Shown here piece by piece: positions 1 to 13,963 of a DNA stretch of 64,000 nt (positions are counted from its first letter, which is position 1; each line of letters starts with the position of its first letter). Origin of the DNA: a virus (taxonomy: Duplodnaviria > Heunggongvirae > Uroviricota > Caudoviricetes). The notes under the pieces were generated by a model that worked only from the letters and a program-made list of their open reading frames with translations, was not told the DNA's origin and searched no databases. The position numbers and the translations under genes are program-made. The stretch lies in the IMG/VR virus record IMGVR_UViG_2915331061_000005; one strand, written 5' to 3'.

Positions 1-114
1 GATAGCCGTCCATGCAGTAAAAGGCACTCCCCGTGCCGACAAAAATTCTGCCGCCGTTGTTGATTACCTCACAATGACCGCAGTTCTTGATCTGGGCAGC
101 CAGTGCAGAAAGTT

Positions 115-300
115 TCATCTTTTCACCACCTCCACGTCAGGATCACCGTCTTCGATGAACTCAGGATAGGCACTCTTTGCGCGTTTCCTCGCTTCGCGGA
201 CTGCCGCATTCGCATTTTTTGCTTCCAGCTTATACGGCAGATACATATTTTCTTTCGTATAGCTGTCAATGCCAAACAACATGATGCTGAACTTCGCCAT
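115..300 (-). CDS. Small conserved hypothetical protein (MAKFSIMLFGIDSYTK...), paralog at 53163..53369
   Basis: Internal ATG of ORF 115..411 preceded by GAAGGGAG RBS. The 61-aa product is ~60 % identical to the copy in module B. Confidence 0.5.
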   Translation of the reverse strand: MAKFSIMLFGIDSYTKENMYLPYKLEAKNANAAVREARKRAKSAYPEFIEDGDPDVEVVKR

Positions 301-380
301 CGTCTGCTCCCTTCTGTTTATTTTTCTTTCGGTGGGCATTTCCGGGCTTGAACCGGGTGGGGCCTGTCCCATGCTCATAT

Positions 381-410
381 AAAAAGAAGCCGCCGCGCCG
401 GGCGGCTCCA
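381..410 (-). terminator. Intrinsic terminator hairpin (GGAGCCGCCCGGCGCGGCGGCTTC then U-tract) upstream of the small gene
   Basis: GC-rich inverted repeat followed by TTTTTATAT on the minus strand. Conserved at 53431..53459. Confidence 0.4.
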
Positions 411-424
411 CGCTTTACCTATGC

Positions 425-652
425 TTATCTTCCCATGGGTTGATATCTATTTGCGCACTCCATATTCGTGCAAAATCGTTCTGTTCCAATGATTTTCAGC
501 GGTTTCCCGCAATACGGGCAAAACGTTGGCTTAGGTTGCGGTTGGCCTTCTCCCTCTAAACTCTGTTGCAACCGATAGAGTGCGCACATGAACGATCCCG
601 GCTGCACATACAGTACACATCGTTCCCTTGCTCTGCAAATATCGCAATTCAT
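425..652 (-). CDS. Zinc-ribbon protein (two CxxC pairs)
   Basis: 75-aa ORF with CDIC...CPYCG...C..C motifs. Confidence 0.45.
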   Translation of the reverse strand: MNCDICRARERCVLYVQPGSFMCALYRLQQSLEGEGQPQPKPTFCPYCGKPLKIIGTERFCTNMECANRYQPMGR

Positions 653-656
653 TTTT

Positions 657-839
657 TTACCTCATCAAATACAGCCAGCAGAATTTCACCAGCCCCGCCG
701 GGACAAGCACAGCCGCCACCAGCCAGAGAACAGCTGCCGCGATCACCAGCGCCGCGAAAATTCCGGTCGCTTCTATCTTTCCGATTTTTACTTTATGATC
801 CATGTTTTTAGCCATTTCCCCTATCTTTGAAGTCCACAA
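657..839 (-). CDS. Small membrane protein
   Basis: 60-aa ORF with one strongly hydrophobic helix (IFAALVIAAAVLWLVAAVLV). Confidence 0.35.
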   Translation of the reverse strand: MWTSKIGEMAKNMDHKVKIGKIEATGIFAALVIAAAVLWLVAAVLVPAGLVKFCWLYLMR

Positions 840-1065
840 ATCGATCTTCTTCGTCTATCATGAACTCGTCAGCGTTCCACACTTCTTTGCAATCCAGACA
901 GTATGCTGTCTGACATTCCATCGGACCCGATGTGCTTCTTGTTCTTTTCTTTAGGAGTTTTCCACGCTTTCCAAGTAACTGGTCATAAGAAAACATCCAG
1001 TGATCCGACACTATAATCTGCCCACCGCAAACCGGGCAGGCTTTGCATTCAGTTCCCTCTCTCAT
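808..1065 (-). CDS. Zinc-ribbon/zinc-finger protein
   Basis: CKACPVCG ... CLDCKEVW cysteine pairs. Confidence 0.45.
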   Translation of the reverse strand: MREGTECKACPVCGGQIIVSDHWMFSYDQLLGKRGKLLKKRTRSTSGPMECQTAYCLDCKEVWNADEFMIDEEDRFVDFKDRGNG

Positions 1066-1066
1066 T

Positions 1067-1606
1067 TTATTTTCCCTTTATGATCCAGACCCGGTGTTCG
1101 CCGTATCCTTCCCAGTTCAGTGCATCCTCATGGCTGCCAGAAACAGCCACGTCCAGCTTATTGCCTTGAATGGCTGCACCGCGATCCTGCACAACGCGCA
1201 CGCCAATGTTTTCTATGTACAGAACGGTTCCAAACGGCAGGCTTTCATCTGCTGCAACAGTCAGCCCCGCCGTCACCGGTGCGCCGCTGGCGGTGATTCC
1301 GTGTCCTTCTCCGCAAATGTGCGGGTATTCTTCTGTGCAGTACGCCGTACACAGAAATTCCCCGGCATATTCCTTTGTCAGTCCATCTGGCAGGGCATTT
1401 TCATTGGCGGCAGTCTGTAACTGGTCGATAACTTCTTCATCCTGAATTGCTCTGTCCTGCCAGTTTGCCAGACGGGCGGAATAGATAATACGCTGCCCTT
1501 CCAGATCATCAATGCGTCTCTGCATCACCGCAACTTTTGTGGCATTGACAATTTCCGCCGCAAAGAACAGTACCAGAATCGCCTTTGTTTTCGCTGTCAT
1601 TTCCAA
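1067..1606 (-). CDS. 3D-domain (MltA/YuiC-like) cell-wall binding/lytic protein with N-terminal signal/TM
   Basis: TAYCTEEYPHICGEGHGITASG...VAADESLPFGTVLYIENIGVRVVQDRGAAIQGNKLDV matches the 3D (Asp-rich) domain. Paralog at 55645..56181. Confidence 0.65.
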   Translation of the reverse strand: MEMTAKTKAILVLFFAAEIVNATKVAVMQRRIDDLEGQRIIYSARLANWQDRAIQDEEVIDQLQTAANENALPDGLTKEYAGEFLCTAYCTEEYPHICGEGHGITASGAPVTAGLTVAADESLPFGTVLYIENIGVRVVQDRGAAIQGNKLDVAVSGSHEDALNWEGYGEHRVWIIKGK

Positions 1607-3117
1607 ACCTCCTTTTCGTCACCGCGATTGGAAACTCTTCTATTTCACTTGCCCAGCGTGCCGTGCCTTTCCCGTATGTAGTCTCCCACACTAGAGGAAA
1701 GCCACCAATTCCGTCAAACAAGCTACCCAGCGTTGCGCCCGCCGGAAGGTATTGCTTCATTTTCTGGGCGATCCAGAACCATTGCGGAAGCGCGATGCTG
1801 TTTCCCAGTGCCTTATAACGCGGGCTGTCTGCCGCCTTGTGCTTTTTCCCTTTGGTGTCCGTCCATTCTCCAATGTCCGTCCACCCGTCCGGGTATCCTT
1901 GCAGGCGCTCGCACTCTGTCGGGGTCAACCTGCGCACGATCCATTGTATCGTCTTTTCTATCACCGCTGCGTCGTGTCTTTCCGCGTACAATGTGCCCAT
2001 TTTTTCCACTTCGTATCCAATTCCGTTCGCCTTTGCTCCTGCTTTATAGGCAAAGCCAGCGCATAGCCGTTCGCGTCGATACTCCAAAGCTACCGCCTGT
2101 GGGTCGTGCATTGTGGTTAACGTGCCGGATGTTTCTTTGCTTGCGGAAACATTCGTTTGCCCATTCCCAACGCCATAGCTCGCCGTCAGGATAGCGGTAT
2201 AGTCCGTCACTCTGCTTTCGTGATCCCCGGTAATGGTCGGCACTGTCTTGCCATCACCGTTTCCCCGTGCATCAAAGACCTTATACGCTACTGCTGGACG
2301 GTCAACAGTGTTCAGCGTGTAGCTCTGGTTTTCCTTCACGCCGGAACCATTTGCGCCGGCCGTTTCAGAGCGATCAATAATGTTTCCTGCCAGGCAATAG
2401 ACCGGCTGAAAAAGGGTCTGATCCTGTAGCGTCGAAAGTGTTCCTGTTTTTTCGGTCTGCACCAGTGCACCTTTGCCGCCCCCGGCACAGCCTGACCGGA
2501 TTTTCAAGGTGTAGGCTTGCCCCCCCTGCTGGCCCACCATTCGATCATTTCCAGTAGGGCGGTTTCCAGCAGTTCTTGTAGCTTCTTGCCACGTCGGGAT
2601 GCTCTGGTCAGGATGCCCCGGCAAGCTTTCGCGCTCAAATAGTATTTCTCCGGCACGTCCACCTGCAAAATCCACGACAAGAGCGATACGTTTTCTTCTC
2701 TGGGGCACTCCCCAATATTGAGCGTCAAGCTGTCGCCAAGCCAGAGACCATCCATTTCCGGCGATTGCTCCGGCTTTGCTCCATCTGCCCCCCCCTCGGA
2801 GGTCTAGGAATTGAAGCGTCTGGTTCTTCCACGCGGGCAAGTTCTTCCAGCACGGCGCGGAAGTCTTCTCCGCCGTTTGAACTGAACGCTCCGGGAACAT
2901 TTTCCCAAATAACGACAACTGGATAACTTCCATGTGTCGCCCTCCTCATTTCTTTGATGATCCGAACTGCTTCCATGAACAATCCCGACCGTTCTCCCGC
3001 AAGTCCCGCCCGCCGCCCAGCAATGGAAAGGTCTTGGCATGGGCTGCCGAAGGTGATGCAATACACGGGTTCTATCTGGTCGCCATGTATCTTTGTGATA
3101 TCTCCAAGGTGGATCAC
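1509..3117 (-). CDS. DNA (cytosine-5)-methyltransferase, circularly permuted (motif order IV-VI-VIII-TRD-IX-X-I-II), split into two frames at a G8 tract (plus-strand C8 at 2768..2775)
   Basis: ORF 2725..3117 has GDI...FGSPCQDLSIAG (motifs III/IV) and ENVPG (VI). ORF 1509..2933 has YWGVPQRRKRIALV (VIII), RLTPTECERLQGYPDGWT (IX), ALGNSIALP (X), then LFDGIGGF (I) and ASEIEEFPIAV (II) near its C-terminus. The frames differ by one nucleotide at the homopolymer. Confidence 0.7.
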
Positions 3118-3431
3118 TTCTTGTCACCCCACCTTGCTTTATGGGGTAAGTCCTGGCACGGGCTGCTGCCGATCAAATAATCCGCCACAATTTCGCCATC
3201 TTCTGCCCACTTCATTCCCAGAAAATCCGCAACGCCGAAACTGCCGTCTTCGCAGCAATGCGTTTCTTGTACAAGCGGTTGGTTTTCAAGTTTCTTCAAC
3301 GGCCCAATTCCACTGGCGGTAAACGCCGCATTTGCCGTTGCGGTCCAGGCTGTCTCTTTATCACCAGTTCCGCCGTTGGTGAAGGTCTTCCCGCACAGCC
3401 TGCACCTGAACGTCATGTAGTACCCTTTCAT
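3114..3431 (-). CDS. Zinc-ribbon protein
   Basis: Internal start MKGYYMTFRCRLCGK...; CRLC and HCC motifs. ATGA overlap with the MTase start. Confidence 0.4.
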   Translation of the reverse strand: MKGYYMTFRCRLCGKTFTNGGTGDKETAWTATANAAFTASGIGPLKKLENQPLVQETHCCEDGSFGVADFLGMKWAEDGEIVADYLIGSSPCQDLPHKARWGDKK

Positions 3432-3461
3432 TGTTCTTCTCCCTTCTGCTTTTTGTTCTTG

Positions 3462-3538
3462 CACGGGTGGCCGGAATCGAACCGGCTTGCCTGCCGCTGG
3501 GGGATCAGGACGGCAGGCAACTTCCTTACTACACCCGC
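3462..3538 (-). ncRNA. tRNA-like structured element (7-bp acceptor-like stem, 9-bp hairpin with 14-nt loop, canonical T-arm GCCGG-TTCGATT-CCGGC); non-canonical, no D-arm
   Basis: Minus strand GCGGGTG...TGCCTGCCG-TCCTGATCCCCCAG-CGGCAGGCA-A-GCCGGTTCGATTCCGGC-CACCCGT-G. Conserved copy at 57773..57849. Confidence 0.35.
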
Positions 3539-3539
3539 A

Positions 3540-3577
3540 TATCAAAACCCACCGCGCAAGAGAGGTGGCGCGGTGGG
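3540..3577 (-). terminator. Intrinsic terminator (CCACCGCGC-loop-GCGCGGTGG then GTTTTGATAT) immediately 5' of the tRNA-like element
   Basis: Perfect 9-bp stem plus U-tract on the minus strand. Conserved, with a G-U pair, at 57856..57890. Confidence 0.4.
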
Positions 3578-3955
3578 GCGACCCGTTGCGGTCGGGTCTG
3601 CTGCCTTTTGCCTGGGCAATTGGGACAGGGCGTTTCTGCGCTCACGCTGCGACGTGCCGTTCAGCTTATGCCGGACTGCCATGCGGGCACGGTTTAGGAA
3701 ATACGGACAGGTCGGATTTTCACCGCCTTATACGGAAGGTTAGCGCTGCTTTTTCAGCATCCGTATTTCCCTGCCAGTTTTGGAAGATGAAACCTTGACC
3801 GGCTTCCATGGAATATGCGAGCAAAGCGGCGCAGGCGGGGTTCGACCCCGCTCCCAGCGTGCTGCGGGCACACCCTGCGCCATATAAAAGCCGCCCGGCC
3901 TTCACACATGACAACTGCTGCTTATCTGCTGAAAACTCTGGCCGGGCGGCTACAT

Positions 3956-4402
3956 TCAGTTTGTTTTGTGGTGCGTCACACTGTATTCTTCGCATTCCTT
4001 GTTGTACCCGTCGCAGGGCGCGCACCGCTGCGACGTGATACGGAACGTGTGTTGGCACTGTTCGCCCTTCTTCGGGGCTGGATGGGTCTTTGTGGACCTC
4101 GCAAGATTTTTCATTTCTTTTGCTTTATATAAATAAGTAGCAGTGCCCAGCGGCACCGTGTTCAGATGGAGCTTTGGTTGAACCCTGCGTGTCCGGTAAC
4201 GGCGCTTGTTGTGAATGGCCCATCCGGGCGTTTCCGGCGGCAAAAGCGTGTATGTCAAATCGTCCAGACCTTCACAGAAGCGTTTGACGCTCTCTGTGAT
4301 TTTCTCAAACGAGTCTATAATTATCTGGCGCATTTTCATCAAATCGCCCACCGGATCTTCGGACCATTCCCGCGTGCCGTGCTCAGGATCGGTTACTATC
4401 AT
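3956..4402 (-). CDS. Hypothetical protein; C-terminal 52 aa is a conserved Cys-rich module (EQCQHTF..RCAPC.GY..C) that occurs as a separate small gene at 58248..58421
   Basis: ORF 3956..4429. Its C-terminal segment aligns with the module-B small protein. Confidence 0.4.
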   Translation of the reverse strand: MIVTDPEHGTREWSEDPVGDLMKMRQIIIDSFEKITESVKRFCEGLDDLTYTLLPPETPGWAIHNKRRYRTRRVQPKLHLNTVPLGTATYLYKAKEMKNLARSTKTHPAPKKGEQCQHTFRITSQRCAPCDGYNKECEEYSVTHHKTN

Positions 4403-4547
4403 GCGCTTCCTTTTCCTTCCGCGCCGCAAACTGTGCAGCGCCCTCCGGGTATCTGGTGGGCTTCCCGGTCAGGTCTGCCGTTGCGGCAAACTCCCGCAGG
4501 ATATGCAGCAGAGGGACAGCAACAACGCCGGTTACTTTCACGCTCAT
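4383..4547 (-). CDS. Small conserved hypothetical (KPTRYPEGAAQF motif), paralog at 58995..59147
   Basis: Internal start MSVKVTG... of ORF 4383..4595. RPTRYPAGRAEF is conserved in copy B. Confidence 0.35.
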   Translation of the reverse strand: MSVKVTGVVAVPLLHILREFAATADLTGKPTRYPEGAAQFAARKEKEAHDSNRS

Positions 4548-4551
4548 AGGT

Positions 4552-5040
4552 TCAGCCCCCGTTCTTGTCTTTCCGTGCCTGCTTGTCCACCGCACTGATG
4601 ATGTGCTTTACCACTTCTTCCATGGGCATATCACCTGCCGGGACCTTGAACATCACGCCCTGCGCCTGACCCGGATTTTCCTTTGCCTGCTTCATTGCAT
4701 CTGCAATAATTTTCTCCATCATGCTGTCCACGTCGCCGGGCTGGCTTGCGGAAGGATCATTCCGCTTTTCTGCCGTGGCGGCAGTGGCAACAGGTTCAGC
4801 GGCAGGTGCGTTGCCATACTCGCGCTTCCATATGGATTCAAACCGTTCGGCGATGATTGCTTTCGCTATGGTCATGACGGCTTCTGCCTTCTTGCGGTTG
4901 CCGTTGCTGGCATCTGCAACGGTGTGTGCAACTGCTATTGCCGCCATAAAAACTTGATCCGTACTGTCTCCCATTGTTTCCACGCTGAGCGAAGTTTCGC
5001 TCTTCATCTTCACGACCAGTTCTGCAATGTTCTTGCCCAT
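4552..5040 (-). CDS. Hypothetical protein
   Basis: 162-aa ORF, acidic, no recognisable motif. Confidence 0.45.
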   Translation of the reverse strand: MGKNIAELVVKMKSETSLSVETMGDSTDQVFMAAIAVAHTVADASNGNRKKAEAVMTIAKAIIAERFESIWKREYGNAPAAEPVATAATAEKRNDPSASQPGDVDSMMEKIIADAMKQAKENPGQAQGVMFKVPAGDMPMEEVVKHIISAVDKQARKDKNGG

Positions 5041-5054
5041 AACACGACTTCCTT

Positions 5055-5357
5055 TCAGGACGGCGCATTTCCGCCCACGTCACTAGTACCAGTGGCTTCA
5101 TACGAATATTCTTTCAGCTCAATGTCCTGTACGCTGTCTTCATCCAACCACTTATTGATGATGTTAAACAGGTATTGCTTGCGCATCTGAATAATGTTCT
5201 TGTTGGTGGTGCCCAGAGAAAACATCTTGATAGCAACGCTCGCTACAAGCCGGGTCAGTTCATCTCCCTGCCCGTTCATTTCCACATAGACACTTTTCTT
5301 CTCTGGCGCATCATGGCCCGTGAAAAACGCCAGAATATGCGTTTTGCTCTTATCCAT
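5055..5357 (-). CDS. Hypothetical protein (AF.HG...NGQGD family, homolog of 59526..59875)
   Basis: Start MDKSKTHILAFFTGHD with AAGGGAGACG RBS. Shares the pattern ILAFFTGHD...NGQGDEL with B copy YAFIHGE...GNGLDLL. Confidence 0.45.
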   Translation of the reverse strand: MDKSKTHILAFFTGHDAPEKKSVYVEMNGQGDELTRLVASVAIKMFSLGTTNKNIIQMRKQYLFNIINKWLDEDSVQDIELKEYSYEATGTSDVGGNAPS

Positions 5358-5370
5358 GTAGTCGTCTCCC

Positions 5371-5796
5371 TTACGAAGGCAGGCCGTCGTCTGCATCCTG
5401 CGGTCTGCTGCCGGTGCCCGCCCGGTCGTCCACAGCAGCGCCAGAGCAGGTAGCACAGTCACCGAAGCACCCGGTGTTCGTGTTCTCTTTCAGCTTTGCC
5501 ATCGCTTGCGCAATAGCGGTTGCCTTTTCGCCGTGCCACTGGACGCTATGGTCTTTGCCATATTCGATCTCGCTGTTGCGGGCGTTCCATGCATCATCCA
5601 GCATACCGTCCAGCTGGTTCTTCATGTCATCCAGCATCTTAATCGCCCGTTCCTTTTCCGGGCTGGACTGCACGATTACGTCAGCCAGCGCCATAGCCGC
5701 GATCTGTGCGATATCTCCCGCGTGGCCGTCAACCTGAATTTCGACATCATCGCCATCCAGAGCGACAGCCAAATAGGCATCCCATCTTTTCTCCAT
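5371..5796 (-). CDS. Hypothetical protein
   Basis: 141-aa ORF with RBS AAAGGACAAAAG. Confidence 0.45.
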   Translation of the reverse strand: MEKRWDAYLAVALDGDDVEIQVDGHAGDIAQIAAMALADVIVQSSPEKERAIKMLDDMKNQLDGMLDDAWNARNSEIEYGKDHSVQWHGEKATAIAQAMAKLKENTNTGCFGDCATCSGAAVDDRAGTGSRPQDADDGLPS

Positions 5797-5830
5797 CTTT
5801 TGTCCTTTCTATTGGTGTGAATCTTCGGTC

Positions 5831-5894
5831 TGGTGGAGCATCCCGGAATCGAACCGGTTCCGGGGCTACACCCCCGGACGCGCCTGCATACTCC
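5831..5894 (-). ncRNA. Minimal tRNA-like element ending in CTCCACCA (acceptor GGAGTAT/ATGCTCC, 7-bp hairpin, T-arm ACCGG-TTCGATT-CCGGG, discriminator A, CCA)
   Basis: Minus strand GGAGTATGCAGGCGCG-TCCGGGG-GTGTAG-CCCCGGA-ACCGGTTCGATTCCGGG-ATGCTCC-A-CCA. Only 64 nt, with no D-arm and no canonical anticodon loop. Confidence 0.35.
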
Positions 5895-5895
5895 A

Positions 5896-5927
5896 TAAAA
5901 CGGGCGGCTTGACAGGCTGCCGCCCAC
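5896..5927 (-). terminator. Intrinsic terminator (GGGCGGC-loop-GCCGCCC then GTTTTAT) immediately 5' of the tRNA-like element
   Basis: 7-bp GC stem plus U-tract. Same terminator-then-tRNA-like architecture as 3462..3577. Confidence 0.4.
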
Positions 5928-6066
5928 CCATGCGGGCCGCCCTATGTATTCTTTCAGTCCTCAGTAGGTAGGACCCCCGACTGTCGGAATGGCCGGGGCA
6001 GCCGTCTGCGTCCCCACGTTTCCGGCTGCATGGTGGGCGTGATTCGGTGCGCCCAGACCTTTGCGG

Positions 6067-6312
6067 CTAATCTCGTGGGTCTCTGCCGCCGATCAGCACG
6101 CCGCCCAGCAGTAGGATCAGCCACACCAACGCCACCACGCCCATGCCAAACTCCGTTATTACTTTGACCCAGTACAGCAGCGCTGTCAGGATGACGGCCA
6201 GAACCAGCGTTCCCGCCAGAACGGCCACCAGAATAATCAGGTTCATTTCGCTTTTCGCCCTTTCTTCTGCTTGTGCTGCCGCGTCTGCCGGGACTTCCGG
6301 CGGTCTTTGCAC
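6067..6312 (-). CDS. Small membrane protein (two TM helices)
   Basis: LIILVAVLAGTLVLAVILTALLYW...VVALVWLILLLGGVLIGG. Confidence 0.45.
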   Translation of the reverse strand: MQRPPEVPADAAAQAEERAKSEMNLIILVAVLAGTLVLAVILTALLYWVKVITEFGMGVVALVWLILLLGGVLIGGRDPRD

Positions 6313-6363
6313 GGGCGGCAGTACAGCGTGGTCAGCGTGTCGAACCGGCGGTACGCCCCGCCG

Positions 6364-6711
6364 TCATGCCTTTTCTTGCTGTTGTTCATGTTCCTTCCGC
6401 TTCCTGTTCCTCTCGATCAGATTATCCAGCTCTTCCCAGGCCTTCTGCTCTTTCAGCAGTTCGTCTAAGCGCCAGTACCCGTATGACTTGCCCGCTGCGT
6501 CCGCCTTGCGCACATCGGCGGTCAGCGGATCAGCGGGCGGGTTCTTATACTTCTTGCGTACCCGTTCCGCAAATCGTTCTGCGCAAACGGGGCACCGCCG
6601 GGCGGTGACATTATTTGAAAGGATCACCGCCCCGCAGTCAACGCAGGTCTTGATTATCACCGGTCCATTCCCCCTTGTGGTTCTGGATGTAGCGCCGGAT
6701 ATCCTCCGCAA
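6364..6711 (-). CDS. Zinc-ribbon protein; conserved C-terminal DVRKADAAGKSYGYWRLDE motif (paralog 60039..60224)
   Basis: CVDCG...CPVC. The C-terminal region aligns with the B-copy protein. Confidence 0.45.
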   Translation of the reverse strand: MRRISGATSRTTRGNGPVIIKTCVDCGAVILSNNVTARRCPVCAERFAERVRKKYKNPPADPLTADVRKADAAGKSYGYWRLDELLKEQKAWEELDNLIERNRKRKEHEQQQEKA

Positions 6712-6798
6712 ACTTTTTGCGCTTCCTGCGCTCTATCACTTCAAAGATGGTGTACATCGCCGCACACACCACGACGACCGCCACCGCCGCCGCGCCCA

Positions 6799-7044
6799 TC
6801 ATCTGGCACGCTCCCGCTTCAGCTGCTTTTCCAGCTCTAAGCGTTCGCACTCCCAGCGATACCGCCGGACACGCTCTTCCAGCAGGTTCACCTTCTGTTC
6901 CAGCTTCGTGGTGTAGCTGATGCTGCACCAGCCCCATGTCAGCAGGGCAGCAATGGTGACGATCAGTGCAAACCACGCCACCGGCTCCCGTGCGGCTGCC
7001 TGGGCGGCATCCACGCCGTAGAACCACATAATAAAGTTCCTCAT
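6799..7044 (-). CDS. Membrane plus coiled-coil small protein
   Basis: N-terminal TM helix, C-terminal LEERVRRYRWECERLELEKQLKRERAR. RBS AAGGAGAG. Confidence 0.45.
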   Translation of the reverse strand: MRNFIMWFYGVDAAQAAAREPVAWFALIVTIAALLTWGWCSISYTTKLEQKVNLLEERVRRYRWECERLELEKQLKRERAR

Positions 7045-7200
7045 GCCTGTTCGCTCTCCTTCTTGTCTTCCGGTGCCTGTGCACCAGCCTTTGCCAGCTT
7101 CATGCCCTGAACCACGCCTGCGATATAGGTCGCTGCTTCCGGGTTCTCTGCCAGCAGTTCGGCCATTTCCTTGCTCTGGCTCTTGTCTTTCTCGCTCATG
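7041..7200 (-). CDS. Unlisted small ORF (MSEKDKSQSKEMAELLAENPEAATYIAGVVQGMKLAKAGAQAPEDKKESEQA), stop overlapping the next start (ATGA)
   Basis: RBS AAAGGAGCG eight nt upstream. Translationally coupled to 6799..7044. Confidence 0.3.
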
Positions 7201-7238
7201 CTCTCACGCTCCTTTGTTGTCTGCTCCTTCCCGTCGTG

Positions 7239-7490
7239 CTATAATATGGTGCCATTGGTGATAAGCAGCGCCGCCGGGAAGTCCGGGTCGTAGTTGAACT
7301 CGATCCGGGCTTTTGCTTTGTGGTCAATAAATCTCACGACTGCCCCGATTTCTCCCAACTTCTGAAACGCTTCTTCCTTGCGCCACACGCCGATTCCTAT
7401 GCCGTTGCAATGAATCTCTTCCGGCTTGTAGCCGTAGTGTTTCAGCACTTCGTCCACGTCGAGTTCATCAAATGCTTTTTTGTGGATCAC
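7239..7490 (-). CDS. Conserved hypothetical (DEVLKHYGYKPEE...KAKARIEFNYDPDFPAALLIT); paralogs at 60523..60810 and 61062..61372
   Basis: >70 % identity to the C-terminal half of the B-copy proteins. GTG start after GGGGGTGAAG. Confidence 0.5.
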   Translation of the reverse strand: MIHKKAFDELDVDEVLKHYGYKPEEIHCNGIGIGVWRKEEAFQKLGEIGAVVRFIDHKAKARIEFNYDPDFPAALLITNGTIL

Positions 7491-7574
7491 ACTTCTTCAC
7501 CCCCTTTTCTGTTGCTCTCGTGTTGCCCATCTCCTCCCGCCGTGGTACAATAGCCACAGAAAGGAGGTGTAAAA

Positions 7575-7943
7575 ATGAGCCTGTCGTTAACTAAAAAGGC
7601 TATCCTTGCCGGATACGCTCATTCCATTTCTCTTAAGGGATTTGAAACAAATCGCCTGTTTCTCGTCACCGCCGCTGGCATCATCAGCGGTATTCCTGTG
7701 TTTGATGAAAAAACAGACAATTTGAATGTTACCGTTGCACAGACGCTCAACTCTGCGGCTCTTGAAGCTGTTTCTAAGGCTGATAGCCCCGATGAAGAGC
7801 GTTCCGCTGGAAGCGGCGAGTTCATTCTGTTAAGGGATGCTCGGTTTGAAGCCACAACTCCCGTTGTGAACTTCCCCATTCTGACCGTGTTCTACGATCA
7901 GATCATTGCCGTGAGCCTTGGTACTGACCCCACCAATCGTTAA
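7575..7943 (+). CDS. Hypothetical protein
   Basis: Strong RBS AAAGGAGG 8 nt upstream, preceded by -10-like TACAAT. Confidence 0.45.
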   Translation: MSLSLTKKAILAGYAHSISLKGFETNRLFLVTAAGIISGIPVFDEKTDNLNVTVAQTLNSAALEAVSKADSPDEERSAGSGEFILLRDARFEATTPVVNFPILTVFYDQIIAVSLGTDPTNR

Positions 7944-8033
7944 GCTCTCGACCTTTTGCCGTCCTTGTACCGCTAATACAAGGGCGGCAATTTCTTTTGC
8001 GCTGCCAGTGATTACAATTTTCATCTCCTTCAC
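7830..8033 (-). CDS. Small hypothetical protein
   Basis: 67-aa ORF. Shares a duplicated 30-nt leader with 7239..7490. Overlaps the 3' end of 7575..7943. Confidence 0.3.
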   Translation of the reverse strand: MKEMKIVITGSAKEIAALVLAVQGRQKVESLTIGGVSTKAHGNDLIVEHGQNGEVHNGSCGFKPSIP

Positions 8034-8082
8034 CCCCCTTCTGTTGCTCTCGTGTTCGCTAAGTTAACTTTACGAGTTCATT

Positions 8083-8099
8083 ATAGTTTATCAAACTAT
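8083..8099. promoter_or_regulatory. Candidate operator: 7-bp inverted repeat ATAGTTT-ATC-AAACTAT upstream of the repressor promoter
   Basis: Perfect palindrome ~30 bp upstream of the -35 box. Confidence 0.35.
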
Positions 8100-8129
8100 C
8101 ATTGTCAACCCCTTTTTCTTCTTTTTTCG

Positions 8130-8158
8130 TTGACTTAATTAACGCGCCGTGCTATTAT
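8130..8158 (+). promoter_or_regulatory. Sigma-70-type promoter (TTGACT, 17 nt, TATTAT) for the XRE repressor gene
   Basis: Near-consensus boxes with 17-nt spacer, ~27 nt before ATG 8185 and RBS AAGGAGGTG. Confidence 0.55.
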
Positions 8159-8184
8159 TATAGTAAAGGAGGTGAAACAAAGGT

Positions 8185-8667
8185 ATGAAAGATAGAATCC
8201 GGGAGGTTCGAGAGCATTTTGGACTTAGTATGGAGAAGTTTGGTTCCCGCATTGGCATAGGCAAAGCGTCCATTAGTCTTTTGGAAAGCGGTAAGAACAA
8301 TCCATCCGTTCAGACCATTACTCTTATCTGCCGGGAGTTCGGTGTAAACGAACAGTGGCTCCGCACTGGTGAGGGCGAAATGCTTGAGCAGACCCGGGCA
8401 AGCGTGCTGGACAGGCTGTCCACGGAATACGATCTGAGCAGGGAGCAGCGTTCCGTAATTGAAGCGTTCCTTGATCTGGACCCGCAGGAACGGGACGTGA
8501 TTCTGAAGTATGTGCATAACGTTTTTGACCGTTCCGCAGAATCCGCAGCCCAGAGCATAGCAATACCCGATAAGGAAGCCCGGCGCATTGCCGAGAGCGA
8601 CGAGTTCAAAGCCCTTCGGGAAAAGAACGAGCCGCCGGAGAGCGAATCGTGTACTACCGCCGGTTAG
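8185..8667 (+). CDS. XRE-family HTH transcriptional repressor (CI-like)
   Basis: N-terminal HTH_XRE motif (LSMEKFGSRIGIGKASISLLESGKNNPSVQTITLICREFGVNEQWL). Sits next to the integrase at the prophage edge. Confidence 0.8.
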   Translation: MKDRIREVREHFGLSMEKFGSRIGIGKASISLLESGKNNPSVQTITLICREFGVNEQWLRTGEGEMLEQTRASVLDRLSTEYDLSREQRSVIEAFLDLDPQERDVILKYVHNVFDRSAESAAQSIAIPDKEARRIAESDEFKALREKNEPPESESCTTAG

Positions 8668-8723
8668 TTCTTCAACGTGCCGCTTCTGAGTGGCTGAAGA
8701 ATCACCAGTAAATCCGCGCAAAA

Positions 8724-8762
8724 AGAAAAAGCCCACCGGGGGACAGGCCCGGTAGGCTTTTT
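8724..8762. terminator. Bidirectional intrinsic terminator (A-tract, 13-bp stem, T-tract)
   Basis: AAAAAGCCCACCGGGggacagGCCCGGTAGGCTTTTT. Confidence 0.45.
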
Positions 8763-8797
8763 CGTGTATGCAAATTATTTTATGGAGGTATTATCTT

Positions 8798-9265
8798 ATG
8801 AGAAAAATTTCTGTCTTTGCTGTTTCCTGTGCCGCCGTTCTCCTTCTTTCCGCTTGTGGCAGTTCTTCCAGTTCCGTGCCTGCATCTAGCGGCGCTTCGT
8901 CTGCTGTGTCCAGTTCTTCGGAACCGGTTTCTTCCGTTTCCGTTTCATCTTCTGCATCGGTCGATGATGCGTTTTCCGATTTTGAAGCCGCGCTTTCCGA
9001 GAACGGTATTGCTTATACGGAAAAGGTTCGTATGGCTGCTGAACTTATCGGCGGCGTAGACGGTTACAAATACAAAACACCCGATTATAACATTGAGGTG
9101 TATACTTTCGATCCTTCGTCCGACGCTTATCTGACTACCGAAAAGGACGGCACCGTTATCATGGAAGGCTTTGGCTCATTCCCTGCTTATGCTCACAACG
9201 GCATGGTTCTTGTGCAGACCGACAATCTTCCCCAGGAAGTGATTGACCTGTTTGATGCCATGTAA
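8798..9265 (+). CDS. Lipoprotein (signal peptide with lipobox LLSAC, Ser-rich linker)
   Basis: MRKISVFAVSCAAVLLLSACGSSSSS... RBS GGAGG. Confidence 0.6.
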   Translation: MRKISVFAVSCAAVLLLSACGSSSSSVPASSGASSAVSSSSEPVSSVSVSSSASVDDAFSDFEAALSENGIAYTEKVRMAAELIGGVDGYKYKTPDYNIEVYTFDPSSDAYLTTEKDGTVIMEGFGSFPAYAHNGMVLVQTDNLPQEVIDLFDAM

Positions 9266-9301
9266 AGCTCCACATTGTCTTTCTGCAAAGGTGGTGTCCC
9301 T

Positions 9302-10912
9302 ATGAAGAAACAACCAACCGGCGGCAAGCGTCTTGTTGCCTACTACCGCTACAGCGGCGGCAGTCATCAAACGGAGCAGTCCATTGAGGGGCAGCGCCGG
9401 GACTGCGAAACTTACGCCCGTATCCATGGCATGGTCATCCTGCATGAATACATTGACCGGCATATCTCCGGCAAGACGGACGACCGCCCGGAGTTTCAGC
9501 AGATGATCGCCGATGCTGGGAAAGGGATGTTCGACTATGTGATTTGCTGGAAAACAGACCGCATTGCCCGCTCCCGGTATGACAGCATCGTCTATAAAAA
9601 GAAGCTCCGTGACAACGGCGTGGAGCTACTCTATGCCGCAGAAGCCAACGTTGAAGGCTCCGGCGGTATCATCGTGGAGGGCTTGATGGAAGCCCTTGCC
9701 GAATACTACTCTGCCGAACTGGCCGAGAAGGTGCGGCGCGGTATGCGGGAAAGTGCCTTGAAGGGCAAGGCTATCGGCAGTTCCCGTCCCCTTGGTCTTA
9801 CCGTGGACAAGGATAAGAAGTATATCATCGACCCCGCCGGGGCTGCCGCCGTGCGGTATATCTTTGAGCAGTACGCCGCCGGGGCTGCGTCCTCTGCTAT
9901 CGTTGCACACCTGAATGAACAGGGCTTGTGCACCAGCCGGGGCAACCCGTTCAATAAGTCCAGCGTGGTGCGTATCATCCAAAACGAGGTGTATCGGGGC
10001 GTGTATGTCAGCCCCAAGTTTGACGTGCGCATTGAGGGCGCAGTACCGGCCATTATTGACGACGATCTATGGGAGAGGGCGCAGAAGATGTTTATTCGTA
10101 ACCGTCAGAGCCGTTCCCCGCGCAATGACCGCGCGGACTACATCCTGTCCGGCAAGCTGTTTTGTGGCGAGTGCGGCACTGCCATGAAGGGCGTGTCCGG
10201 CCACAGCAGCAACGGCGAGGTGTACTTCTACTACAGCTGTCCGTGCAAGGACTGCCACCGCCGGAACATCCCGAAGGACGAGCTGGAAGGTCTGGTAATC
10301 CGCACCGTCTGTAACGACGTGTTGCAGCCGGACGTGATGGATCGCATTGCAGACAGTGTGATCGAAGCCCAGACCGCCGAACTGAACCAGCCAAACCCGG
10401 AGAAGGAAGCATTGCAGCACGAGCTTGCCGACGTGCAGCGCAAGGCAAAGAATCTGCTGTCTGCATTGGAGAACGGCACCGCCGGGGCTATGCTGACCAA
10501 CCGCCTTGCCGAACTGGAACAGCAGGCCAACACGCTGTCCTATCAGCTGTCGTCGCTGGAATCTGAGCCGAAGTTCCCGGTCTTCTCCAAGGAAGAAGTT
10601 CTGTACCTGCTGGAACAGTTCCTCATTGCCCCCAGCGAGAAAACCAAGGCATACCGCCGCCGCCTAATCGACACCTTTGTCAGCAAGATCGAGGTGAGCA
10701 ACACGGAACTGACCATCTATTTCAACATTGCCGAGGAAGATTGTGGAAAAATGAAAAAAGCTCCCCAGTCGAACCAGCCCGAAGGCTGTTCGACTGAGAA
10801 GCAAATGGTCCACCTTGCACATCAACAAGCGAACTATTCCCTTTATGCGGCTTCCGGCTACTTTTCACTGGTTGAACACCAATTTTCGGCCCGTTTGTGG
10901 CGCACCGCATAA
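9302..10912 (+). CDS. Large serine recombinase (phage integrase)
   Basis: Resolvase catalytic domain (VAYYRYSGG...EGQRRDC), recombinase domain, zinc ribbon (CGECG...CPCKDC) and C-terminal coiled coil. ~65 % identical to 62456..64000. Confidence 0.85.
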   Translation: MKKQPTGGKRLVAYYRYSGGSHQTEQSIEGQRRDCETYARIHGMVILHEYIDRHISGKTDDRPEFQQMIADAGKGMFDYVICWKTDRIARSRYDSIVYKKKLRDNGVELLYAAEANVEGSGGIIVEGLMEALAEYYSAELAEKVRRGMRESALKGKAIGSSRPLGLTVDKDKKYIIDPAGAAAVRYIFEQYAAGAASSAIVAHLNEQGLCTSRGNPFNKSSVVRIIQNEVYRGVYVSPKFDVRIEGAVPAIIDDDLWERAQKMFIRNRQSRSPRNDRADYILSGKLFCGECGTAMKGVSGHSSNGEVYFYYSCPCKDCHRRNIPKDELEGLVIRTVCNDVLQPDVMDRIADSVIEAQTAELNQPNPEKEALQHELADVQRKAKNLLSALENGTAGAMLTNRLAELEQQANTLSYQLSSLESEPKFPVFSKEEVLYLLEQFLIAPSEKTKAYRRRLIDTFVSKIEVSNTELTIYFNIAEEDCGKMKKAPQSNQPEGCSTEKQMVHLAHQQANYSLYAASGYFSLVEHQFSARLWRTA

Positions 10913-10995
10913 TCTGTAATTACTTTGTAATCTTTGTGCAAACAAAAAATGCCCCGCCAGCAATCCGTCAGGATGCCAGCGGGGCATTGCTTTAC

Positions 10996-11313
10996 TTAGT
11001 GGAGATACCTTGCCAATTCAGATGCAACAAAGCCTGCGATCACTGCCGCAATGACTGCCCACCAGAGTTTGTTTCCAAATACTCCGGGGGCTTTTTCCAG
11101 CGCGGTCAAGCGGTCGTCCTGCTTCTTGTTCTGTGCCGTCACAACTTCAAGGCTCCGGTTTGTGGTTTCGAGTTGCTGGATGGTCAACTTGATATTGGTG
11201 TTCATGCCGTTTACTGCATCGGTCAGCTTCCCCAGCTCGTCCAGCCGGTGGGTGTTGCTCTGTGCACGGTTTTCGACCGCTGTCAGGCGATGTTCCAGTT
11301 CCTCGTCAGTCAT
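10996..11313 (-). CDS. XhlA-like protein (coiled coil plus C-terminal TM), lysis accessory
   Basis: MTDEELEHRLTAVENRAQ... coiled coil then WWAVIAAVIAGFVASEL. Start with GGGGGAGAA RBS. Confidence 0.5.
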   Translation of the reverse strand: MTDEELEHRLTAVENRAQSNTHRLDELGKLTDAVNGMNTNIKLTIQQLETTNRSLEVVTAQNKKQDDRLTALEKAPGVFGNKLWWAVIAAVIAGFVASELARYLH

Positions 11314-11701
11314 TACGCTTGTTCTCCCCCACGTTACCGAAATGGGCCACAGTAGTGGTTTCTGCAGATTTCTTTGCCATGTAATCTTCGAGCTTCTTCT
11401 TGGTAAAGTCGAACACAAGTTGCACGATCCAATCCAGCGTCCGCTCATTGATTGCCCAGTCCAGCCAGTCCGGGGTGTACCCACGCAGTACGGCAATGAC
11501 ATGGGCTTTCTTTTCTGCACCCGCGCCACTGCCGAACTTTTCCTCTGCGTTGACGATCCACTTGTACACAGTCTTTGCGACCACAAGGCCGTAGCCCAGA
11601 CGTACCGCCGCCAGCGCCGTGACCACAAGGCCGACCATCATGAAGATACAGGCCAGCCATTCAGGGAATGCCATCAGAAAAACTTTCAGAATGTTCTCCA
11701 T
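11306..11701 (-). CDS. Holin (LL-H/Dp-1 family-like)
   Basis: N-terminal TM helices then NAEEKFGSGAGAEKKAHV motif typical of LL-H holins. Confidence 0.55.
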   Translation of the reverse strand: MENILKVFLMAFPEWLACIFMMVGLVVTALAAVRLGYGLVVAKTVYKWIVNAEEKFGSGAGAEKKAHVIAVLRGYTPDWLDWAINERTLDWIVQLVFDFTKKKLEDYMAKKSAETTTVAHFGNVGENKRND

Positions 11702-11719
11702 TTTGTTTTCCTCCTACTC

Positions 11720-12453: not shown

Positions 12454-12465
12454 GGTGATACCTCC

Positions 12466-12669: not shown

Positions 12670-12683
12670 GGTGACTGTCCTCC

Positions 12684-13943: not shown

Positions 13944-13963
13944 TGTTACCTCCTTGTTTTCGT

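Follow-up and report, generated by a model that had tools for sequence, protein, structure and literature searches.

The window analysed here, a stretch of 64,000 nucleotides, carries two similar blocks of early genes, each followed by a repressor gene and a large serine recombinase gene, which raises the question of how many phages it holds and how they came to lie side by side. We propose that it most probably represents a double lysogen, in which two collinear, heteroimmune Toutatis-like Faecalibacterium myophages, both facing the same way, are stacked at a single tRNA-Pro(GGG) gene. Such a stack of known phage types is an ordinary double lysogen and a known kind of structure.

Two prophage units in one orientation

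The first unit (phage 1, positions 1 to 10811) is the right-hand end of a prophage, with the early operon, immunity region, integrase and att core. It is 100% identical throughout to two solitary phage-1 prophages (L020 and L023), in which the matched stretch is followed on the right by tRNA-Pro and then by host genes. The second unit (phage 2, 10806 to 63968) is a complete FP_Toutatis-like prophage of 53,157 bp from core to core. Phage 2 is collinear with FP_Toutatis (NC_047915, Toutatisvirus toutatis) over nearly its whole length at 97-98% identity (97.4-98.2% over 10806-42190, 42398-52533 and 53156-64000); it is also collinear with Lelie (PP479942), to which it is 97-99% identical in the late and early regions but from which it differs in the immunity region. 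FP_Toutatis, Lelie and phage 2 share gene order, a diversity-generating retroelement (DGR) with two variable regions, a phiC31-type integrase and the position of cos. Phage 1 is a more distant relative of FP_Toutatis and Lelie (62% identity in the integrase, 35-79% in early proteins), and no close full-length match to it was found in the phage collection. In the whole window only two att cores were found, and the window thus holds two units, one of them partial. The sequence-only reading had described related prophages with different repressors lying head-to-tail in the same orientation, and this was confirmed for the two.

The late genes of phage 2 all lie on the minus strand. The lysis cassette (10996-12133) was assigned from the annotation of Toutatis gp86-88 and Pfam Peptidase_M15, and comprises a 105-aa holin-like gene (10996-11313), a gene for a 131-aa protein (11306-11701) and an M15 endolysin gene (11720-12133). 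It is followed by the DGR (12684-16110), recognized from its repeats, Pfam RVT_1 and DUF6273 and the Toutatis annotation, with a DUF6273 target gene (12684-13943; variable region ~13305-13455), a reverse transcriptase gene (13964-15193), a template repeat (~15361-15485) and an Avd-like gene. Structural and packaging genes (16098-39731) were assigned using Pfam (gene tables of L045 and L100) and the Toutatis and Lelie annotations, and include tape measure (23496-26999), sheath (28418-29866), major capsid (32033-33109), portal (34674-36296), TerL (36540-38399) and TerS (38970-39731). The ends of the Lelie virion record fall on adjacent positions of phage 2 (Lelie 1 on 39962, Lelie 53400 on 39963), which places the predicted cos site at 39962-39963; Lelie is predicted to carry 5'-overhanging cohesive ends, and its record was reordered so that the predicted cos comes first (PMC11792537).

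Attachment core, integrase tails and tRNA-Pro

Core and arms were defined using a five-way alignment that included the window junction, the Lelie attP, the Toutatis attL and the window attR. The recombination core of both integrases is the 6-bp TGGTCC, the complement of the GGACCA at the 3' end of tRNA-Pro(GGG). The alignment and an arm census showed that the core at the inter-unit junction (10806-10811) is of attP type (P1 arm, core, P' arm), while the core at 63963-63968 is that of an attR (P2 arm, core, B' arm). The latter belongs to the attB target, tRNA-Pro(GGG) on the minus strand, of which the window contains the first 38 nt, its 3' part (63963-64000), before it ends inside the gene; in L037, L038, L017 and L019, ARAGORN located tRNA-Pro(GGG) at exactly this position. 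In the census, P1/core/B' was found at 9 solitary phage-1 loci and P2/core/B' at 8 loci, and attL sites had the form B/core/P'. The P' arm is identical across phage types, and both integrase types use the same attB, the same P' arm and both host tRNA-Pro loci, each of which forms its own host context. Furthermore, P1-core-P' is the natural attP of a phage-1-type IMG/VR genome of 93% identity. A Logan contig (L006) runs unbroken across the core and ends at window position 11473, an observation that is hard to square fully with a second copy of P' in the sample.

Each unit carries a large serine recombinase gene on the plus strand with Pfam Resolvase, Recombinase and Zn_ribbon_recom domains. The sequence-only reading had put their identity at ~65%; the two proteins are indeed related, but the measured value is 62% over 500 aa, and the genes match at 72% over 9328-10332 and 62491-63492. 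The integrase of phage 1, int_1 (9302-10912), has the full-length phage form of 536 aa. The last 33 codons of int_1 are supplied by the P' arm on the right-hand side of the core, and the C terminus of the protein (...MVH-LAHQQANYSLYAASGYFSLVEHQFSARLWRTA) is identical to the tail of the Lelie virion form, whereas int_1 has 513 aa in solitary copies. The integrase of phage 2, int_2 (62456-64000), has the prophage form of 514 aa, with the last 10 codons read antisense to tRNA-Pro and a C terminus (...LVR-VARIELTAS) whose tail is the same as that of the solitary int_1 form. The Lelie virion-form integrase has the same start as int_2 and is ~538 aa long. Since an intact attP-type site lies between the units, int_1 is full length and int_2 has the truncated prophage form.

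These arrangements suggest how integration might proceed. The attP core TGGTCC lies ~100 bp inside the 3' end of each phage's own integrase gene, so that integration would swap the C terminus of the integrase (from 536 to 513 or 514 aa), exchanging a 33-residue tail for 10 residues encoded antisense to the tRNA. Insertion into the last 6 nt of tRNA-Pro (GGACCA) would leave the tRNA intact and may put a phage hairpin and U-run, antisense to int, behind it as a substitute terminator. The P1 arm (10726-10805, minus strand) carries a hairpin and U-run on the tRNA strand, antisense to the 3' coding region of int_1, and the P2 arm (63883-63962) is its equivalent. ViennaRNA folding gave a hairpin with a U-run directly after GGACCA in the P1, P2, P3, B(i) and B(ii) arms (-26 to -39 kcal/mol), and the modelled P-arm fold has the shape of an intrinsic terminator. 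A half-site spacing measured from the CGAAC motif was also considered and was rejected, as this motif belongs to the terminator hairpins.

Formation of the stack

Two routes could have brought the units together. We consider it an even chance that a superinfecting phage 1 circle entered a resident phage 2 by Campbell-type homologous recombination within the conserved P'-lysis segment, a crossover made plausible by the high conservation of this segment. The other, somewhat less likely route is that Int_2 used the attR of a resident phage 1 (the P1-core-tRNA half-site) as a surrogate attB. Such a reaction could work if hardly any sequence is demanded of the left (B) half-site and the foreign P1 arm does not count as P-type. 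Integration occurs with either of two unrelated B arms, B(i) and B(ii) (12 and 7 IMG/VR attL sites, respectively), and specificity would thus reside mainly in the tRNA half-site and the core. The junction is also heterotypic, the unit downstream of its P1 arm being of P2 type. Moreover, window 10805-23943 differs from a solitary phage 2 (L046) by one mismatch in 13,139 bp, DGR target included, and so phage 2's own DNA, with the fast-evolving variable region, extends at least 13 kb to the right of the junction; a homologous crossover would need to fall within ~2.5 kb of the core. In addition, a remnant in another contig (L032) lies distal to intact late and lysis genes, as if newcomers insert beside the tRNA. 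Against the integrase route, serine integrases are reported to recombine only attP with attB, or attL with attR in the presence of a directionality factor, and to be unable to recombine attP with attL or attR (PMC3783163). Homologous recombination is slightly more likely than the integrase route; with identical P' arms, the two routes would lead to one and the same product.

Repressors and immunity

The phage 1 repressor (8185-8667, plus strand, 160 aa) is an HTH_3, CI-like protein (Pfam HTH_3, E = 2e-13; Phage_CI_repr weak) with matches to the transcriptional repressors phrog_8 and phrog_4. The phage 2 repressor (61772-62125, plus strand, 117 aa) has a weak HTH_3 match (E = 1.7e-4; 22.0 bits, just under the Pfam cut-off of 23), and its Toutatis counterpart gp03 is annotated as a 'putative repressor'. 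BLASTP gave no alignment between the two repressors, even at E<=100. They had been called unrelated, which holds in that similarity is undetectable, although both belong to the HTH_3/Cro-C1 class. In GCA_009679855.1, phages 1 and 2 reside in one genome at the two separate tRNA-Pro sites. We infer heteroimmunity because the repressors have no detectable similarity and the two phages co-reside in this genome. Between repressor and integrase, the lysogeny module of phage 1 has a gene (8798-9265, plus strand; called in L005 and L017-L026) for a 155-aa putative lipoprotein, assigned by eye from a signal-peptide/Cys motif. The exact protein is present in 673 collection blocks, and it had no Pfam or PHROG match.

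Phage 1 and the junction between the units

Phage 1 extends past the left edge of the window, which leaves its expected attL and the left 40 kb or more of the unit outside; what can be seen here is limited to the integrase, repressor and lipoprotein genes and the early operon. Judging from solitary units of ~52.4 kb in ENA and IMG/VR contigs, phage 1 is probably complete in this genome. It is unlikely to be a decaying remnant, with a lysogeny module and early genes remaining upstream of a working phage 2, a situation that has a precedent in L032 (ERZ24911549 NODE_15): there, 84 bp after a holin gene, comes a truncated recombinase of 336 aa that carries a third P arm, and then Abi_2, a repressor, a few early genes and host genes. 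In the window, however, all visible phage 1 genes are intact, int_1 included, and positions 1-10811 are 100% identical to solitary copies. Furthermore, the solitary copy L007 continues for 10 kb more to the left of the window start with intact-looking early and replication genes, and phage-1-type units of ~52.4-54.3 kb are common.

The evidence for the tandem comes from short-read assemblies. In comparisons with sister isolates, identity to solitary phage 1 stops at 10811, and that to solitary phage 2 (L046) begins at 10805. Isolate GCA_009680005.1 has the same junction within a 327,831-bp contig, and it recurs in another large contig and in a Logan assembly. If the two were separate prophages, reads from circular phage 1 (P1-core-P') might have led the assembler through shared P'-lysis sequence. 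Several observations would fit such a chimera: P1-core-P' is a natural attP, Lelie, a related phage, undergoes spontaneous induction (PMC11792537), the P' arm and the holin protein (the latter in 18,268 collection blocks) are highly conserved, L006 is unbranched at the core, as expected if the junction far outnumbers alternatives, and GCA_009679855.1 has the phages as separate prophages. We nevertheless regard a chimera as improbable. The 327,831-bp contig extends 287 kb to the left of the junction and, on the right, has phage 2 late genes for 29 kb, the second large contig also has the junction, and the window is unbroken from phage 1 early genes to tRNA-Pro. A coverage-driven path via circles would run on into phage 1 late genes, but what follows the junction is the DGR variable region and the tape-measure protein of phage 2, with no phage 1 version. 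The exact tape-measure protein of unit 2 is also on a 427,079-bp contig, and collection block counts leave no room for large solitary phage-1 contigs to carry it.

The shared early block

The early operon of phage 1 (115-7490, minus strand; gene calls from L005 and L021, with Pfam and PHROG), which pairs with 53163-60807, encodes small proteins, a 3D-domain protein (1067-1600), a C5-methyltransferase (1509-3117), a Zn-ribbon protein (6364-6660) and the phrog_34489 protein (7239-7490). That of phage 2 (53163-61599, minus strand; gene calls and Pfam in L037) encodes a small protein (53163-53369), Band_7 (53465-54376), 3D-domain (55645-56175), C5-methyltransferase (56129-57539), HD-domain (58425-58991) and phrog_34489 (60523-60807) proteins and a cro-like HTH protein (61354-61599). 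Synteny had been claimed between 1-7500 and 53163-61700 as whole blocks; it is real but patchy. Self-BLAST of the window gave not one short segment but six collinear ones, ~2.4 of 7.5 kb at 72-87% identity: 108-410 with 53156-53459 (80%), 1143-1943 with 55718-56518 (72%), 2191-2279 with 56742-56830 (82%), 2404-3122 with 56835-57543 (77%), 3455-3651 with 57766-57961 (80%) and 7258-7499 with 60545-60784 (87%). They cover ~31% of the DNA of 1-7500, where 8 of ~20 genes are matched. BLASTP found eight homologous protein pairs in the same order in both units: the small protein (98 and 68 aa, 68% identity), the 3D-domain protein (64%), the two methyltransferase ORFs (63% and 75%), a pair of 54 and 50 aa (35%), the Zn-ribbon protein (67% over 24 aa), the 'KHYGYKPEE' protein of phrog_34489 (79%) and the recombinase. 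Band_7 and HD-domain genes are specific to one block, and genes for 162, 100 and 141 aa to the other.

The proposal of a permuted methyltransferase is consistent with the Pfam profile, which is divided between the two ORFs (positions 46-132 in the first, 133-323 in the second); by eye, the C terminus shows FDGIGG, which resembles motif I. Of a proposed tRNA-like RNA, the 77-nt acceptor/T-arm fold is present in both units (3462-3538 and 57773-57849, minus strand), but ARAGORN and Rfam do not recognise the element. The block had also been taken for a shared terminal accessory module. It is instead the early operon adjoining the immunity switch: collinear protein similarity continues for 10 kb more past the window start (L007 against window 51.9-42.4 kb, 35-70% aa identity), which makes phages 1 and 2 syntenic relatives. 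The idea that the arrangement favours recombination between shared modules is weak, the longest perfect inter-unit match in the window being 41 bp.

Each repressor and recombinase had been read as opening a fresh phage, so that at least three genomes would lie head-to-tail with a shared terminal module, but both pairs belong with the block to their left. The complete genomes of FP_Toutatis and Lelie have the order integrase, repressor and, divergently, the early genes, and solitary prophages have the order block, repressor, lipoprotein, integrase, directly followed by tRNA-Pro and host genes; together these orders give two units in the window. The three-genome reading is thus extremely improbable and already refuted for the window, even though the block-repressor-recombinase pattern does appear twice, because only two att cores are present and collinearity runs on past the block; a third unit is possible only outside.

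Discussion

The stack resembles tandem double lysogens (polylysogeny) of temperate phages, the classic case being lambda dilysogens: there, too, a single attachment locus carries two prophages pointing the same way, the internal site is of attP type and only the outer sites are hybrid. Heteroimmune partners and a cos-to-cos segment across the junction are further common features. Lambda has a tyrosine integrase, whereas the integrases here are serine integrases; since insertion of attP into attL or attR is not an accepted reaction for these (PMC3783163), the formation route is less obvious than in lambda.

The join between the units displays how these serine-integrase phages integrate. Att sites were not defined in the description of FP_Toutatis (PMC5883640), and integration sites were called intergenic in that of Lelie, an active cos phage (PMC11792537). 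Unlike in these descriptions, the target predicted here is the 3' end of tRNA-Pro(GGG). In Myxococcus phage Mx8, attP lies inside the int ORF and integration makes a recombinant int with a new 3' end (PMC6070905), and SSV-type archaeal integrases also have the att site inside the integrase ORF (PMC7253208). Those enzymes are tyrosine recombinases, and SSV integration splits the gene in two, whereas here only the last 33 codons would be exchanged, with the three predicted catalytic and DNA-binding domains upstream of the core. The integrases of phiC31, Bxb1 and A118/LI have the same Resolvase, Recombinase and Zn_ribbon_recom architecture with an N-terminal YxRxS-type motif, and likewise use short att sites that share a small core and form attL and attR hybrids. 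The present phages differ from them in that their attP falls within the 3' end of the integrase gene itself, they target a tRNA gene at its extreme 3' terminus and supply a terminator-like hairpin there, and integrases only 62% identical have one attB and one P' arm in common.

In the stack, the outer attL and attR would be the only legitimate excision pair. Integrase with a directionality factor would then excise the whole ~105-kb dimer rather than single units. As cos lies far from att, a cos-to-cos unit over the junction would package a hybrid, which would combine the early, immunity and int genes of phage 1 with the late genes of phage 2. Through such packaging, the tandem state may be a route to module exchange.

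Attachment sites and unit boundaries

We aligned the junction in the window with the virion-form sequence of the published Faecalibacterium phage Lelie, the far end of the record of the published phage FP_Toutatis and the 3' ends of the integrase genes. All aligned att junctions had a 6-bp core, TGGTCC, in common. In the phage form of Lelie, the core lies between the P2 arm (a phage arm left of the core) and the right phage arm P', and at the left end of the Toutatis record it lies between host DNA and the P' arm. At window 63963, the P2 arm and the core are followed by GAGTGGCGAGAATCGAACT..., which is the host B' arm (tRNA-Pro), while the order at window 10806 is P1 arm, core and P' arm, an attP-type junction between two units. 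The same P1-core-P' order was found in a 93%-identical phage-1-type IMG/VR genome; therefore, the inter-unit junction is simply the normal attP of phage 1. ARAGORN identified the host arm as tRNA-Pro(GGG), the last six bases of which, GGACCA, are the complement of the core. Only 38 nt of this tRNA lie in the window, ending exactly at the stop codon of the unit 2 integrase gene int_2, and no tRNA was detected in the window sequence itself because it ends 38 nt into the gene. At this stop codon (63998-64000) the window ends exactly, and the same base is the first of the FP_Toutatis record. Window and record alike look like prophage predictions cut back to the edge of a gene, and trimming at this codon removes the att site and the tRNA that mark the true prophage end.

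Only two cores with recognisable arms occur within the window; it thus comprises the right end of unit 1 (1-10811) and the whole of unit 2, which measures 53,157 bp from core to core. As judged from these cores, the window holds two phages, and not the 'at least three phage genomes' of the sequence-only reading. That reading also had a fresh repressor and recombinase following each block. In exact-protein look-ups, the lysogeny module of phage 1 formed a solitary prophage in 9 of 10 places among the matches listed; at these loci the 513-aa integrase is followed by host genes, with the P1 arm and TGGTCC running into the same host arm, and the int_2 protein (514 aa) likewise has host genes next in line elsewhere. 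The lysogeny module thus ends its own phage, and repressor and recombinase evidently belong to the block on their left. The repressor and integrase genes of unit 1 (rep_1 at 8185, int_1 at 9302) and of unit 2 (rep_2 at 61772, int_2 at 62456) are all on the + strand, and both early operons are on the - strand. The probable tandem array has two units that point the same way, and each of them has an integrase and immunity genes of its own; the array's internal junction is of the attP type, and its outer right junction is an attR with host DNA. Cornuault et al. did not find the att sites of serine-recombinase prophages (PMC5883640), and the Lelie paper described the integration sites as intergenic (PMC11792537). 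The att sites of the Toutatis/Lelie group, the location of which both published descriptions left open, are now defined, with the core TGGTCC at the 3' end of tRNA-Pro(GGG) and attP inside the integrase ORF.

Relatedness of the two units

The window is Faecalibacterium prophage DNA with a G+C content of 54%, and its megablast matches in the phage collection were FP_Toutatis (NC_047915, 54,725 bp) and Lelie (PP479942, 53,400 bp). By local BLAST, FP_Toutatis was collinear with the window at 97.4% identity over 10806-42190, 98.2% over 42398-52533 and 97.8% over 53156-64000, and Lelie matched at 97-99% from 10.8 to 40 kb, in the late region, and from 45.5 to 60.8 kb, in the early one. The genomes of both published phages have, in this order, the integrase, the repressor, a divergently transcribed early operon, the replication genes, an opposite-strand module, the terminase, the structural genes, a diversity-generating retroelement (DGR) and the lysis genes. 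With its high nucleotide identity to and collinearity with the type phage FP_Toutatis, unit 2 is a member of the genus Toutatisvirus. Unit 1, a candidate member of this genus, showed patchy DNA similarity (72-88% in the 10.8 kb visible, its late region lying outside the window). Its proteins are collinear with those of the Toutatis-like phage 2 at 35-79% identity, and this collinearity goes on in L007, a solitary phage 1 locus.

Self-comparison of the window gave six collinear DNA matches between 1-7500 and 53156-60784 (72-87% identity, ~2.4 kb in total) and a 72% DNA match between the recombinase genes. Eight protein pairs were homologous and in conserved order between the two units: a small protein (68% identity), a 3D-domain protein (64%), the two ORFs of a C5-methyltransferase (63% and 75%), a 54/50-aa protein (35%), a Zn-ribbon protein (67% over 24 aa), a 'KHYGYKPEE' protein (phrog_34489; 79%) and the recombinases (62% over 500 aa). 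The sequence-only reading had therefore listed the shared genes essentially correctly. The block synteny that it described holds for these collinear homologues, but the larger part of each early block is unshared, and each has genes absent from the other. The recombinases are homologous, as it stated, at a measured identity slightly below its ~65%. The repressors, which it called unrelated, gave no alignment whatever in the protein comparison, although both are HTH_3-type. The name 'terminal accessory module' did not survive, since the block is the early operon and the next 10 kb in L007 are collinear with phage 2 from window 51.9 to 42.4 kb (35-70% amino acid identity), copies of a RAGATH-5-like repeat included. 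The supposed shared module is best read from these alignments as the visible part of a genome-wide synteny of two related phages, namely the early operon beside the immunity switch. Furthermore, perfect matches between the two units reach 41 bp at most inside the window, so that the early blocks are poor substrates for homologous recombination and unlikely to be the recombination-favouring modules proposed earlier. Overall, the earlier observation was partly confirmed and its interpretation partly supported, with two related prophages in place of at least three.

Probable physical reality of the junction

Window 1-10811 is 100% identical to solitary phage 1 (loci L020 and L023), and window 10805-23943, a stretch that includes the DGR target protein, differs from solitary phage 2 at locus L046 (GCA_009679915.1) by one mismatch in 13,139 bp, at 18048; left of the core, L046 runs into host DNA. 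A 327,831-bp contig of GCA_009680005.1 contains the junction, flanked by 287 kb on the left and 29 kb of phage 2 late genes on the right, and the P1-core-P' inter-unit junction was also found in a second large contig and in one Logan assembly. In addition, the exact tape-measure protein of unit 2 is present on a 427,079-bp contig, and block counts from the look-up leave no room for it on the large contigs with solitary phage 1; hence, the two phages have different late regions, and it is phage 2 DNA that lies right of the junction. An assembly chimera made by way of phage 1 circles should run on into the late genes of phage 1, but the DNA flanking the junction on either side is specific to each phage. 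The tandem leaves one observation unexplained, namely that the Logan contig passes through the core without branching and ends at window 11473. Taken together, these comparisons make it probable that the tandem is real and not an assembly join.

All of unit 2 is in the window, while the missing left part of unit 1 (40+ kb) and its attL would lie outside it. In IMG/VR, the first 40 bases of the window matched only two contigs, both shorter and phage-1-like. In a search for the late genes of phage 1, none of the 120 tape-measure homologues listed was assignable to phage 1 contigs. The IMG/VR contig 3300045988_056138 (54.3 kb, P1-core-P') was considered as a second tandem and rejected; it has a single holin copy, for which a circularly permuted phage genome is the simplest reading.

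Host loci shared by both phages

Two host contexts were found right of the tRNA, Pribosyltran/SLH/MacB and UvrA/UvrB/RadC, and each harbours phage 1 in some assemblies and phage 2 in others; thus, the 62%-identical integrases share attB. The P' arm of both integrase types is identical as far as seen. In GCA_009679855.1, phage 1 occupies the Pribosyltran/SLH/MacB context and phage 2 the UvrA/UvrB/RadC context, so that two phages whose repressors have no detectable similarity, a candidate heteroimmune pair, are co-resident at separate sites. Loci L017-L026, L037-L039 and L046 come from sister isolates (GCA_0096797xx-0096800xx), in which 100%-identical copies of phage 1 and phage 2 occur singly, both in one genome at separate loci, or stacked, at either tRNA-Pro(GGG) locus. 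This pattern suggests recent phage movement within the population of these sister gut-isolate strains.

At four loci, an IS30-like transposase gene (HTH_38 + rve, ~350 aa) lies directly beside the holin on the attL side (L027, L030, L033 and L034; ~10498-11556), and the usual core and P' arm were not found at these transposase sites. In L030 and L035, the attL flank is a DUF6061 gene; it belongs to a mobilisable element that also carries Mob/relaxase and primase genes. The tRNA-Pro locus appears to be a hotspot for mobile elements in general. In another assembly (L032, ERZ24911549 NODE_15), a decayed upstream unit at 10318-15223 lies beside an intact Toutatis-like late and lysis region, in the order holin, 84 bp, truncated 336-aa serine recombinase (with a third P-arm type), Abi_2, repressor and cro-like gene. 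In the species-representative genome collection, an exact 30-mer of core and P' arm had no match, and a scan with the holin protein gave only 2 relevant loci.

The integrase gene and its exchanged tail

Pfam assigned PF00239, PF07508 and PF13408 to int_1 (536 and 513 aa) and int_2 (514 aa), which is consistent with the resolvase, recombinase and zinc ribbon order of large serine recombinases. Read by eye, their N-termini (...LVAYYRYSGGS.QTEQSIEGQ) appear to match the Y-x-R-x-S catalytic serine motif. As is typical of serine integrases, attP and attB share only the 6-bp core and give hybrid attL and attR sites; virion-form Lelie was set against solitary prophages and host flanks to delimit the arms. 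In the full-length integrase gene, the core sits 101-106 bp before the stop codon, and every Pfam domain of the recombinase is upstream of it. The phage-form integrases (536 aa for int_1 in the tandem, about 538 aa from the equivalent start in Lelie) have the C-terminus ...V-H-LAHQQANYSLYAASGYFSLVEHQFSARLWRTA, and the prophage forms (513/514 aa) end in ...V-R-VARIELTAS, which is encoded antisense to the tRNA. The Mx8 tyrosine integrase is known to have its attP within the int ORF, the 3' end of which is changed by integration (PMC6070905), and the SSV-family tyrosine integrases likewise have the att site inside the int ORF and a changed 3' end (PMC7253208).

On the tRNA strand, the P1, P2 and P3 arms were folded into a strong hairpin with a U-run directly after GGACCA, and the native sequences downstream of the tRNA fold likewise. 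Since the arms fold like the sequence that they displace, the phage appears to supply a replacement intrinsic terminator, encoded antisense to the integrase. Within the integrase 3' coding region, the hairpin and U-run are at window 10726-10805 and 63883-63962 (tRNA strand), and the complement of the U-run encodes the Lys-rich integrase stretch KMKKA / NKNKKT. A CGAAC motif at a fixed distance from the core was rejected as a half-site signal for the zinc-ribbon domain because it is part of the terminator-type hairpins after the tRNA in all arms.

RNA elements, methyltransferase and retroelement

A conserved 77-nt tRNA-like element occurs in both phages (window 3462-3538 and 57773-57849, both on the - strand), in a gap between genes upstream of the methyltransferase operon. 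Its acceptor stem is 7 bp long, the loop of its T arm reads TTCGATT, and the place of the anticodon arm is taken by a 10-bp central hairpin with a C-rich 14-nt loop. Acceptor and T arm were 100% paired in 13 variants, and all 4 compensatory pairs came from one divergent sequence; the element had no ARAGORN or Rfam match. A weak P6 sRNA match at 58157-58238 was discarded as just a GC hairpin. Six copies of RAGATH-5 (RF02685; 58-68 bits against a gathering score of 50) lie at window 41231-45124 (+) between small ORFs of the opposite-strand module of phage 2, and the homologous module of phage 1 in L007 has similar repeats; no mention of RAGATH-5 was found in the literature searched.

The C5-cytosine methyltransferase is in two overlapping frames in both phages (1509-3117 and 56129-57539, both -), and the length of the split gene is 1 mod 3. 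The break in the phage 2 type is a poly-G tract of variable length at ~57219, with G8 in the window and at L037-L041, G9 in Toutatis, G10 at L042 (in frame, 470 aa) and G14 in Lelie, and from these lengths the tract looks phase-variable. The enzyme appears to be circularly permuted, with motif I at the C-terminus. The DGR (12684-16110 and 51949-52080) has one template repeat (~15361-15485) and two variable repeats, one in a 419-aa DUF6273 protein (~13305-13455) and one in a second DUF6273 gene of the early region (51949-52080); for Lelie, a second variable region has been described before (PMC11792537). Among the sister isolates with phage 2, only some had a record of the exact 419-aa target protein. 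Block counts suggest that one such isolate is without it, which, if so, would hint at recent diversification.

Expected behaviour and origin of the stack

Under the rules for serine integrases, attP x attR is not an accepted reaction (PMC3783163), and the excision pair predicted from these rules would be the outer attL and attR only. With unit 1 flanked by attL and the attP-type site and unit 2 by the attP-type site and attR, integrase and directionality factor should excise a ~105-kb dimer and not single units. Lelie is a cos phage (PMC11792537) with termini corresponding to window 39962/39963; thus, the stretch bounded by the cos sites of the two units would be a unit-length genome. It would combine the replication, early, immunity and int genes of phage 1 with the lysis and structural genes of phage 2, and its packaging would yield a hybrid phage.

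The stack may well have been formed when phage 2 was resident and the circle of a superinfecting phage 1 recombined homologously with it within the conserved P'-lysis segment, an origin to which we give about an even chance. Tentatively, phage 2 could instead have integrated into the attR of a resident phage 1, which yields an identical product. For such an integration, the B arm seems nearly unconstrained, since two unrelated B arms are used (12 and 7 IMG/VR attL sites), and the junction is heterotypic; moreover, the DNA right of it is phage 2's own, DGR variable region included, so that a homologous crossover would be confined to the ~2.5 kb next to the core. The rule against attP x attR speaks against it. 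The junction might also have come from attR x attL recombination of the excision type between a prophage at one tRNA-Pro locus and a prophage at the other, but this was rejected as unlikely because the chromosome between the loci would be deleted or split.

A more general form of integration into an occupied site, which we regard as rather unlikely, is ordered stacking by serine integrase, in which a resident attR (foreign P arm-TGGTCC-tRNA) would function as attB for a second phage whose integrase is of another type. Specificity would then rest on the core and the tRNA half-site, with the integrase gene itself carrying the P arm. Newcomers would always insert beside the tRNA, the upstream unit would regain a 536-aa integrase in place of one of 513 aa, and cos-to-cos packaging across the junction would emit hybrid phages.

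All in all, the window most probably shows an ordinary double lysogen, two stacked units at tRNA-Pro that belong to Faecalibacterium phage types described before, and only the att-site anatomy and the possible integrase-mediated stacking carry some novelty. The stack offers a testable case for whether tandems arise by homologous recombination or by use of an occupied site, and for the release of hybrid phages by serine-integrase tandems. If true, ordered stacking would be an exception to the attP x attB-only rule for serine integrases and a built-in, site-specific route to prophage stacks and module exchange.
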